This document shows, piece by piece, positions 1,141 to 3,704 of a stretch of 64,000 bases of DNA. Numbering within the stretch: the first letter of the stretch is position 1; every line of letters begins with the position of its first letter. The position numbers and the translations under genes were made by a program. The stretch lies in NCBI RefSeq assembly GCF_003334815.1, contig NZ_QOWO01000003.1; one strand, 5' to 3'. Below the pieces are notes generated by a model, which was not told the origin of the DNA, ran no database searches, and saw nothing but the letters and a program-made list of their open reading frames with translations. The stretch is from Escherichia coli (GTDB lineage Bacteria; Pseudomonadota; Gammaproteobacteria; Enterobacterales; Enterobacteriaceae).

Positions 1141-2169
1141 TTACTGCTGGCGTAGCTGGAGATCCAGCGGCGTTTTGCTGGGTTCGCCGCCAATTTCTCG
1201 CGCCAGTTTCGGCACCAGATATCCCGACACCAGTGTCAGCAACTCACGCATAATCTGCCGTGCTTCGTCATCACTCACCATAAAATGCGCCGCGCCCTGT
1301 ACTTTATCGAGCACATGCAGGTAATACGGCATTACGCCGGCATCGAACAACGCATTACTCAGGTTTGCCAGCGTTTGTGCGTTATCGTTCACATCACGTA
1401 ACAGAACGCTCTGGTTCAGCAAAGTAACGCCTACCCGGCGCAACTTAGCCATCGCCTGACGGAATGTTTCATCTACCTCATTGGCATGGTTGATGTGATT
1501 CACCAGCAAGATTTGCAGCGTAGAACGGGCAAAGCATTCAACCAGCGCCTCGGTGATACGTGCCGGGATCACAATCGGCAGACGGCTGTGAATCCGCAGA
1601 CGTTTTATATGCGGGATGGCTTCCAGTTGTGTGAGCAACCAGTCCAGCTCGTGATCTTTCGCCATCAGCGGATCGCCGCCGGAGAAAATCATCTCGTCCA
1701 GTTCCGGATGCGCAGCAACATACTCAAGTGCAGTTTGCCAGTTACGCTTGTTGCCCTGATTTTCGGCATAGGGGAAGTGACGACGGAAGCAATAGCGGCA
1801 ATTTACCGCGCAGCCGCCTTTGACCAGCAAAAGCGCCCGGTTGTGGTATTTATGCAACAAACCAGGCACTACGCTGTGCTGTTCTTCCAGTGGGTCGGTG
1901 GAGAATCCGGGCGCGATGACAAACTCATCTTGCGAGGTAAGTACCTGACGCAAAAGAGGATCGTCCGGATTGCCTTTCTCCATGCGATCGATAAATGAGC
2001 GGGGCACACGCAGGGCAAAAAGCTTTTTGGCGCTGCGTCCGGCTAACAGTTTTTCCTCCGCGTCTATATTCAAAAGACGCAGAAGTTCATCAGGATCGGT
2101 CACAACATCGGCAAGTTGCGTTAACCAATCTTCTCTGGATGGGGTATTTAGGGTTACAATATGCGCCAT
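1141..2169 (-). CDS. epmB: EF-P beta-lysylation enzyme, lysine 2,3-aminomutase family (radical SAM)
   Basis: 342-aa ORF with CxxxCxxC motif (CAVNCRYC); matches recalled K-12 EpmB/YjeK; divergent from efp. Confidence 0.95.
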   Translation of the reverse strand: MAHIVTLNTPSREDWLTQLADVVTDPDELLRLLNIDAEEKLLAGRSAKKLFALRVPRSFIDRMEKGNPDDPLLRQVLTSQDEFVIAPGFSTDPLEEQHSVVPGLLHKYHNRALLLVKGGCAVNCRYCFRRHFPYAENQGNKRNWQTALEYVAAHPELDEMIFSGGDPLMAKDHELDWLLTQLEAIPHIKRLRIHSRLPIVIPARITEALVECFARSTLQILLVNHINHANEVDETFRQAMAKLRRVGVTLLNQSVLLRDVNDNAQTLANLSNALFDAGVMPYYLHVLDKVQGAAHFMVSDDEARQIMRELLTLVSGYLVPKLAREIGGEPSKTPLDLQLRQQ

Positions 2170-2210
2170 TTTGTGGCTTAGCTACCAATTAACAAATTTC
2201 AGAGGGCCTT

Positions 2211-2777
2211 ATGGCAACGTACTATAGCAACGATTTTCGTGCTGGTCTTAAAATCATGTTAGACGGCGAACCTTACGCGGTTGAAGCGAGTGAATTCGTA
2301 AAACCGGGTAAAGGCCAGGCATTTGCTCGCGTTAAACTGCGTCGTCTGCTGACCGGTACTCGCGTAGAAAAAACCTTCAAATCTACTGATTCCGCTGAAG
2401 GCGCTGATGTTGTCGATATGAACCTGACTTACCTGTACAACGACGGTGAGTTCTGGCACTTCATGAACAACGAAACTTTCGAGCAGCTGTCTGCTGATGC
2501 AAAAGCAATTGGTGACAACGCTAAATGGCTGCTGGATCAGGCAGAGTGTATCGTAACTCTGTGGAATGGTCAGCCGATCTCCGTTACTCCGCCGAACTTC
2601 GTTGAACTGGAAATCGTTGATACCGATCCGGGCCTGAAAGGTGATACCGCAGGTACTGGTGGCAAACCGGCTACCCTGTCTACTGGCGCTGTGGTTAAAG
2701 TTCCGCTGTTTGTACAAATCGGCGAAGTCATCAAAGTGGATACCCGCTCTGGTGAATACGTCTCTCGCGTGAAGTAA
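2211..2777 (+). CDS. efp: Elongation factor P
   Basis: 188-aa [18 protein letters not shown]..., modified-lysine loop KPGKGQA. Confidence 0.97.
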
Positions 2778-2828
2778 TGCGGTTGTGGTGCGGCCTGCAG
2801 GCTGCACCATCACTTATTCAGGTCAGAG

Positions 2829-2954
2829 ATGATGAAACGCCTTATCGTTCTTGTTTTGCTTGCCAGCACGCTGCTCACGGGCTGTAACACCGCTCGCGGT
2901 TTCGGCGAAGACATCAAACATCTCGGCAACTCCATCTCTCGCGCTGCCAGCTAA
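2829..2954 (+). CDS. ecnA: Entericidin A lipoprotein (41 aa)
   Basis: Small [22 protein letters not shown]... with lipobox LTGC; below the 60-aa ORF track cutoff, read directly from sequence. Confidence 0.8.
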
Positions 2955-3064
2955 TTTTTCTTCTCTTCCGAAAAATCATCAGATTCCCATCATTTTTGGC
3001 GATGTTGTCTATTATTAATTTGCTATAGGCAAACATAAATAACATTACCTAAAAGGAAGACGTT

Positions 3065-3211
3065 ATGGTGAAGAAGACAATTGCAGCGATCTTTTCTGTT
3101 CTGGTGCTTTCAACAGTATTAACTGCCTGCAACACCACGCGTGGCGTTGGTGAAGACATTTCTGATGGCGGTAACGCGATTTCTGGCGCAGCAACGAAAG
3201 CGCAGCAATAA
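3065..3211 (+). CDS. ecnB: Entericidin B lipoprotein (48 aa)
   Basis: Small [25 protein letters not shown]... paralogous to ecnA; read directly from sequence. Confidence 0.8.
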
Positions 3212-3386
3212 GCAATAACGGTACGACAGCTGTGTCGTGCCGTTTGTTTTTTCTGCGATAGTCACAAAGGTAATAGTTGAAATTCCCCTGCCACCTGGCA
3301 AAATATCCGTTCAACCATCAGCTTTGCAGGACGACCTGCAAACGCCTCTTTTCACCGGGGACGGCCCCAATTCTCCGGAGCCTGAT

Positions 3387-3704
3387 ATGTCCTGGATTAT
3401 CTTAGTTATTGCTGGTCTGCTGGAAGTGGTATGGGCCGTTGGCCTGAAATATACCCACGGCTTTAGTCGTTTGACGCCGAGTGTTATTACTGTGACGGCG
3501 ATGATTGTCAGTATGGCGCTACTTGCCTGGGCGATGAAATCGTTACCAGTAGGGACGGCTTATGCCGTGTGGACGGGTATTGGCGCAGTCGGCGCGGCCA
3601 TAACCGGCATTGTGCTGCTCGGTGAGTCCGCTAACCCGATGCGCCTGGCGAGTCTGGCGTTAATCGTATTGGGGATTATTGGTCTGAAACTCAGCACTCA
3701 CTAA
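3387..3704 (+). CDS. gdx: SMR-family guanidinium exporter (SugE)
   Basis: 105-aa product [21 protein letters not shown]... from internal ATG at 3387 (GGAG SD) of the 155-aa ORF. Confidence 0.9.

Follow-up and report, generated by a model that had tools for sequence, protein, structure and literature searches.

The window, by which we mean the whole stretch of 64,000 nucleotides of Escherichia coli DNA that was analysed, carries two small lipoprotein genes in tandem, separated by a short spacer:

2829..2954, plus strand: ecnA (b4410), entericidin A prolipoprotein, 41 aa, supported by HMM, K-12 identity and dN/dS
2955..3064, plus strand: ecnA-ecnB spacer, 110 bp, with the ecnB promoter and 5' leader
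3065..3211, plus strand: ecnB (b4411), entericidin B prolipoprotein, 48 aa, supported by HMM, PF08085 and dN/dS

An earlier note, made from the sequence alone, had placed two reading frames of 41 and 48 aa at exactly these positions on the plus strand, 110 bp apart, and had named them ecnA and ecnB. Firstly, the alignment with K-12 that it proposed as a check gave 100% identity over 2778..3260; all 483 of 483 nucleotides are those of MG1655, and this segment covers both genes, the spacer and the terminator. The MG1655 annotation gives 2829..2954 as ecnA (b4410, YP_026283.1; MG1655 positions 4376317-4376442), 'entericidin A lipoprotein, antidote to entericidin B', and 3065..3211 as ecnB (b4411, YP_026284.1; 4376553-4376699), 'bacteriolytic entericidin B lipoprotein'. 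Secondly, both products exceed the curated cutoffs of their NCBIfam equivalog models (EcnA against NF007319, 114.9 bits, cutoff 86; EcnB against NF007487, 121.9 bits, cutoff 94), and EcnB matches Pfam PF08085 (E = 5.9e-07). Thirdly, the neighbours of the type locus, epmB, efp, gdx/sugE and blc, are kept in the window as in K-12 MG1655, and the gene order efp, (ecnA), ecnB, sugE, blc is universal among the 80 Enterobacteriaceae species that we compared. It is a near certainty that these genes are the K-12 entericidin locus (Bishop et al. 1998); the locus is the same one, and no difference was found.

The find is an ordinary one, because ecnA and ecnB have long been known and are already annotated in K-12: the genes were described in 1998, they stand in the K-12 reference annotation and curated HMMs name them. 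Each of the 5426 complete E. coli genomes matches a 701-bp query from the locus, and in 5420 of them the match extends over 80% of the query or more. The RefSeq records that we inspected carry both annotations, under the product names 'lipoprotein toxin entericidin B' and 'lipoprotein antitoxin entericidin A', with which the K-12 names agree. Both frames are shorter than 60 aa and therefore cannot appear in a list of ORFs of that minimum length, from which their absence had been reported correctly. The further suggestion, that length-filtered annotation misses such genes, holds for a naive 60-aa list and fails for RefSeq/PGAP and the K-12 record; since these list both genes, it has to be limited to the naive length filter. 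What the 60-aa list displays at this place is a set of antisense frames:

3063..3314, minus strand: antisense ORF, 83 aa, over ecnB
3119..3301, minus strand: antisense ORF, 60 aa, over ecnB
2259..2813, minus strand: antisense ORF, 184 aa, over efp

The locus is a fair teaching example of how a 60-aa filter hides real genes and displays spurious antisense ORFs instead.

Reading frames and lipoprotein features

We compared 80 species-representative Enterobacteriaceae loci, picked by similarity to EcnB; because of this choice, species carrying ecnA only are invisible in the set. EcnB is 48 aa long throughout, with 81-100% identity. The pooled Nei-Gojobori dN/dS is 0.055 for ecnB (80 species) and 0.076 for the mature part of ecnA (54 unique sequences), synonymous sites being near saturation in both estimates. 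Variable columns are in excess at third codon positions (21/12/47 for positions 1/2/3 in ecnB, 14/9/22 in ecnA), and the two other sense frames were rejected as alternatives, as they hold stops in 80 of 81 and in 81 of 81 sequences. Both annotated frames are under strong purifying selection across the 80 species, which removes the ground for doubt that the earlier note had named, namely a lack of conservation of the frames in related genomes. In the species that carry ecnA, this gene is under purifying selection, so its product does something.

These data bear on a sceptical explanation, in which the two frames are non-coding ORFs that arose by chance and the true feature lies elsewhere, for example in the 83-aa antisense ORF at 3063..3314. 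Small ORFs do arise easily, and 38 ORFs of at least 20 aa overlap a stretch of 2.2 kb around the locus. Against this stand the low dN/dS of both genes, the third-position excess, the stops in the other sense frames and the HMM scores beyond curated cutoffs; the 83-aa antisense frame is itself interrupted within ecnB in 77 of 80 species, which rules it out as a real feature. EcnB peptides have moreover been detected by mass spectrometry, EcnB being among the small proteins most commonly detected in E. coli proteomics (PMC12529367). This explanation is already refuted by how the frames are conserved and by the detection of the protein, and we give it practically no credence. A search of the Ribo-seq literature found no text mentioning ecnA.

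The claim that the two genes are paralogues proved sound: BLASTP aligns EcnA and EcnB with 55% identity over 44 aa (E = 4e-14) and each protein cross-matches the NCBIfam model of the other (E about 1e-11 to 1e-12), which is far beyond chance. The signal peptide, the lipobox Cys and the CNT[AT]RG.GEDI motif that had been read as shared are present in both ORFs. Both precursors have a basic N-terminus, a hydrophobic stretch and a lipobox (LTGC in EcnA, LTAC in EcnB). In EcnA, whose start may be ATG 2829 or the adjacent ATG 2832, the signal peptide takes up codons 1-18, the lipobox L-T-G-C ends in Cys19 (2883..2885) and the mature peptide has 23 aa; in EcnB, the corresponding elements are codons 1-21, L-T-A-C with Cys22 (3128..3130) and 27 aa. 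Both lipoboxes fit the pattern [LVI][ASTVI][GAS]C, which is found in 80 of 80 EcnB and 56 of 57 EcnA sequences. Across species, LT[AG]C followed by Asn is invariant in EcnB, and EcnA shows L[TAS]GC in 56 of 57 sequences, with Asn at +2 in as many (56/57).

Lipoproteins in which Asp is absent from position +2 are sorted to the outer membrane by the Lol system. With Asn rather than Asp at this position, outer-membrane sorting by Lol is predicted for both entericidins. From general lipoprotein biology, EcnA and EcnB would be lipidated at the Cys and then cut by signal peptidase II; lacking Asp at +2, they would be sent by Lol to the outer membrane, where they may reside as lipid-anchored amphipathic helices. 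The helical hydrophobic moment of the mature peptide (18-residue window) is 0.68 for EcnA, a value reached by 0 of 2000 shuffles, and 0.49 for EcnB (p = 0.006). As computed from the peptides, these moments would fit the amphipathic-helix model of entericidins, which reportedly goes back to Bishop and colleagues in 1998. UniProt curation asserts lipid modifications of Cys22 (PMC12529367).

Transcription and translation signals

We searched the locus for elements that could govern the expression of the two genes, and the following were located upstream of, between and downstream of the coding regions:

2781..2814, plus strand: GC-rich hairpin after efp, RNA fold of -22.6 kcal/mol, z -2.3, with a T-poor tail
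3005..3018, plus strand: conserved block TTGTCTATTATTAA, which holds the sigma-S-type -10 of the ecnB promoter
3008..3015, plus strand: sigma-S-type -10, TCTATTAT, inside the conserved block
3021..3029, plus strand: TGCTATAGG, -10-like pause element in the initially transcribed region, with coordinates deduced from PMC5389655
3053..3059, plus strand: Shine-Dalgarno AAGGAAG of ecnB, read from the sequence, ending 5 nt 5' of the ATG
3066..3096, plus strand: predicted MicA pairing site (RNAduplex), spanning the start codon of ecnB and its first 10 codons
3217..3254, plus strand: intrinsic terminator of the ecnAB and ecnB transcripts (terminator scan), a 12-bp stem at 3217..3244 followed by a T-run

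Upstream of ecnA, no sigma-70-like promoter was found in 2100..2840, nor a T-run terminator after efp, and a literature search on an ecnA promoter returned nothing relevant. The hairpin at 2781..2814 lies directly 3' of the efp stop codon (2775..2777) and 15 nt 5' of ecnA, and a comparable post-efp hairpin occurs in all related loci, with a median MFE of about -24 kcal/mol. The terminator scan gave no call for it, because the T-run is absent. It is probably a leaky efp terminator or an RNA-stabilising stem, and ecnA may be transcribed by read-through from efp across it.

The structure of this hairpin is kept across genera through pairing-preserving changes, as in Salmonella (ATGGTGCAGC/GCTGCGCCAT). 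Its tail is a T-run in Salmonella and Citrobacter and T-poor in E. coli, which suggests more read-through into ecnA in E. coli than in the others.

The spacer is 99-111 bp long in 54 of 56 ecnA-bearing species. The RNA fold of 2940..3000 reaches only -4.8 kcal/mol (z +0.87), hence there is no terminator after ecnA, and with nothing of the kind intervening between ecnA and ecnB a bicistronic transcript is possible. The earlier note had also pointed to this spacer as the place to look for an ecnB promoter, and the promoter is there. Promoters used by sigma-S have a -10 of the TCTATACTT type and a C at -13, the -35 being weak or absent. A scan of the spacer for the sigma-70 consensus gave no match. 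At most positions of the block TTGTCTATTATTAA, about 90% or more of the related loci share the base of the window, positions 3013-3014 being those that usually differ; this conservation is seen in loci with ecnA (n=59) and without it (n=22) alike. The ecnB promoter has been transcribed in vitro by sigma-38 RNA polymerase and is poorly recognised by the sigma-70 enzyme (PMC5389655), and this published sigma-38 dependence, together with the position of TCTATTAT in a conserved block and the failure of the sigma-70 scan, identifies a sigma-S promoter.

From the numbering in PMC5389655, ecnB transcription would start at about 3021..3023. The same study describes a -10-like element that causes a sigma-38-dependent promoter-proximal pause at +17/+18, abolished by a +5G substitution, in a region that overlaps an OmpR repressor site (PMC5389655). 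GCTATA within this element is largely conserved across species. We had considered TGcTATAGG (3021..3029) as an extended -10 and rejected it, since PMC5389655 assigns it to the transcribed region as a pause element and a better -10 is offered by the conserved TCTATTAT that lies upstream.

By eye, the Escherichia ecnB leader has about 6 extra bases relative to most other genera, within 3030..3045 on the plus strand. These create two ACAT repeats about 9 bp apart (CAAACATAAATAACAT), at the place where PMC5389655 puts the OmpR site, and may represent a lineage-specific change in OmpR control.

The Shine-Dalgarno sequence AAGGAAG is a strong one and is conserved at about 90% or more in all related loci. 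Just downstream, RNAduplex pairs the 5' end of MicA, whose sequence was verified as Rfam RF00078 (83.9 bits), with ecnB at -24.2 kcal/mol, compared with -12.7 +/- 2.7 kcal/mol for shuffled targets, none of which was as good (0/500). MicA represses ecnB mRNA (PMC3551931), and the site predicted at 3066..3096 would be consistent with this published repression. The terminator downstream of ecnB is strong, folding at -24.6 kcal/mol (z -4.74), and 0 of 200 shuffles were as good.

Loss of ecnA and the toxin-antidote label

We then weighed the description of the two genes as an antidote/toxin pair, which the earlier note had adopted. The wording agrees with the standard product names and fits poorly with the loss of ecnA in 23 of 80 species and with the abundance of EcnB in healthy cells. 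Taken literally, it describes a classical chromosomal toxin-antitoxin, addiction or programmed-death module, in which EcnB is lethal unless neutralised by EcnA and in which sigma-S/OmpR control frees EcnB to lyse part of a starving population. RefSeq and the K-12 record annotate the genes in this sense; the antitoxin-first order, with no terminator between the genes, resembles that of toxin-antitoxin operons; and EcnB overproduction leads to lysis, which ecnA co-expression lessens, by the accounts that PMC7296081 and 10.1101/505081 give of Bishop et al. (1998). In these relayed accounts, the label appears to rest mainly on the overexpression results of 1998. We nevertheless regard such a module as unlikely, for the reasons that follow.

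Toxin and antitoxin genes are not always retained together among the 80 species. In 22 of the 80 species, ecnB occurs without a detectable ecnA, and in one more (locus L009) ecnA is frameshifted, so that 23 of 80 lack an intact ecnA; in all 23, ecnB (81-98% identity) and its promoter are conserved. Some of these cases are clear pseudogene decay, with ecnA remnants in Salmonella enterica subsp. arizonae (L006) and in three other species (L009, L022, L059). The efp-ecnB gap of S. arizonae (L006 2209..2500) has the E. coli length and aligns to ecnA along its length; ATGATG has become ATACTG, with loss of the start, and an 11-bp deletion falls in the CNTARGFG motif, in a locus where ecnB is 98% identical and the promoter block is intact. 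The efp-ecnB gaps without ecnA fall into 17 sequence classes. On a tree of efp and ecnB, which is rough as it is built from 708 nt only, Fitch parsimony places ecnA at the root and gives about 11 changes of ecnA state (bootstrap range 9-13).

The locus also does not travel on mobile elements. Matches to ecnB occur in 17 of 72,556 plasmid records, mostly chromosome-sized, and in 4 of the 50,697 records of the phage collection, each time on a contig of 250-500 kb; in these collections, genuine plasmids and phages are all but free of ecnB.

Published work on the cells themselves likewise speaks against EcnB being lethal unless neutralised. Up to about 70,000 copies of EcnB per healthy cell were counted by mass spectrometry in minimal medium (PMC12529367), with no lysis, and EcnA protein was not detected by this technique (PMC3686733), an outcome that the shortness of the tryptic peptides of EcnA may explain. 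The Keio ecnA mutant is viable (PMC7296081). The ecnB gene has its own promoter, and upon LolCDE inhibition it rises 6.7- to 13-fold, without ecnA (PMC5105897). An Agrobacterium homologue has no lytic or pore-forming activity (PMC7296081). In a study of ampC amplicons, a deletion of ecnB and a deletion of the ecnB promoter were both viable, and the region between ecnA and ecnB is where one of the amplicons begins (PMC12625342); that paper says nothing decisive on toxicity.

The reading that we favour, and consider likely as a whole, is that EcnB is primarily a conserved stress-phase envelope lipoprotein which damages membranes only if overproduced, and that EcnA is a dispensable, modulating paralogue, the two not forming an obligate toxin-antidote module. 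In this proposal, ecnB is transcribed from a sigma-S promoter of its own within the spacer; according to the literature, sigma-S induces it in stationary phase and under envelope stress, and OmpR and the small RNA MicA repress it. EcnB would then be a normal component of the stress-phase envelope, causing membrane damage only on overproduction, and EcnA an accessory paralogue, dispensable and able to modulate EcnB. The counterpoint is that the only direct functional tests in E. coli, those of Bishop et al. (1998) in their relayed form, show antidote-like behaviour of EcnA.

Doubt about the toxin-antitoxin label for entericidins has already been voiced in PMC7296081; what we add is the repeated loss of ecnA while ecnB and its promoter stay conserved. 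From this comparative pattern, in which every species has a tightly constrained ecnB, ecnA has been lost again and again and the locus is not mobile, together with the published abundance and knockout data, we argue that the annotation over-interprets overexpression. A bolder version holds that the name 'toxin-antitoxin' is a misnomer altogether: EcnB would be an abundant, sigma-S-controlled outer-membrane/vesicle lipoprotein with a non-lethal role in the envelope, EcnA a younger or accessory paralogue lost about 10 times in Enterobacteriaceae, including Salmonella, and lysis an artefact of overexpression. For this version, we hold the chances of its being right and wrong to be evenly balanced.

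The pattern of loss also bears on a different function for the pair, as an exported weapon, with EcnB released in outer-membrane vesicles or secreted to lyse competitors and EcnA serving as the immunity factor of the producer. A secreted 3-kDa EcnB homologue of Enterobacter sp. C6-6 is bacteriolytic to Flavobacterium psychrophilum (Schubiger 2015, as relayed in PMC7296081), EcnB-like lipoproteins occur in vesicles of several Gram-negative bacteria (PMC7296081), and the Asn at +2 predicts sorting to the outer membrane. The presumed immunity gene is, however, the one that many species retaining ecnB have lost, the locus has no dedicated export or processing gene, and the Agrobacterium homologue acts in the docking of vesicles rather than in lysis (PMC7296081). 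We consider this function very improbable, well below the addiction module.

Related systems and flanking observations

The envelope-lipoprotein reading can be set beside several known systems. Other PF08085 lipoproteins, such as Agrobacterium Atu8019 and Xanthomonas citri ecnAB, are likewise small prolipoproteins, each having a lipobox Cys and a short mature domain that is conserved, and weak entericidin-family matches were found in Burkholderia, Paroceanicella and Acinetobacter records. Atu8019 was studied alone, as a surface-exposed vesicle-docking protein without lytic activity (PMC7296081), whereas in enterobacteria the two genes stand in tandem at a fixed place between efp and sugE/blc. 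Toxin-antitoxin modules with small hydrophobic toxins share with ecnAB a small membrane-active peptide that is lytic if overproduced, an adjacent counteracting gene and a small RNA (here MicA) acting on the toxin mRNA. In contrast to these modules, the ecnAB products are exported lipoproteins and mutual paralogues; the 'toxin' gene ecnB has its own sigma-S promoter and its product is abundant in healthy cells (PMC12529367); and many species keep ecnB in the absence of the 'antitoxin', while mobile elements do not carry it.

Loci of the Citrobacter type, which carry ecnR, have the order efp, ecnA, ecnB, sugE, blc in common with the window. In most other genera, about 900 bp separate ecnB from sugE, whereas in Escherichia the ecnB-gdx interval is 175 bp, without a regulator ORF; short ecnB-sugE intervals also occur in a few genera besides Escherichia. 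Between ecnB and sugE, Citrobacter werkmanii has a 199-aa ORF (L007 2678..3277, minus strand) that resembles regulators of the LuxR/RcsA type (E = 4.9e-13 against the RcsA model, below cutoff) and is presumably the regulator gene ecnR.

Among the plasmid records with ecnB, the only small ones are NZ_CP069925.1 (5.3 kb, 'Klebsiella oxytoca') and NZ_CP048309.1 (24.5 kb, E. coli). Their EcnB is 100% identical to the E. coli protein, and excision of ampC-region amplicons or faulty assembly may account for these records. Among the other PLSDB 'plasmid' matches, several are 0.4-5.4 Mb long and resemble chromosomes or chromosome fragments.

E. coli UPEC129 (NZ_CP071522.1; L081 1579..1679) carries a natural clean deletion of ecnA and ecnB, which leaves 101 bp between efp and sugE where the window has 609 bp. 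Less than 80% of the region is covered in only 6 of the 5426 complete genomes, this one among them.

Downstream of the ecnB terminator lie a further regulatory element and its gene:

3323..3369, plus strand: Guanidine-II (mini-ykkC) riboswitch, Rfam RF01068, 50.4 bits (gathering score 32)
3387..3704, plus strand: gdx/sugE, 105 aa, start ATG at 3387 (K-12 annotation 4376875-4377192)

A 155-aa ORF that starts from GTG 3237 (3237..3704, plus strand) was rejected as a gene: as it spans the ecnB terminator and the riboswitch, it is an artefact produced by beginning each ORF at the first possible start behind a stop. The Guanidine-II riboswitch stands just 5' of gdx/sugE, and is already known from the guanidinium exporter gene of K-12; its first hairpin (3323..3342) also came up in the terminator scan.
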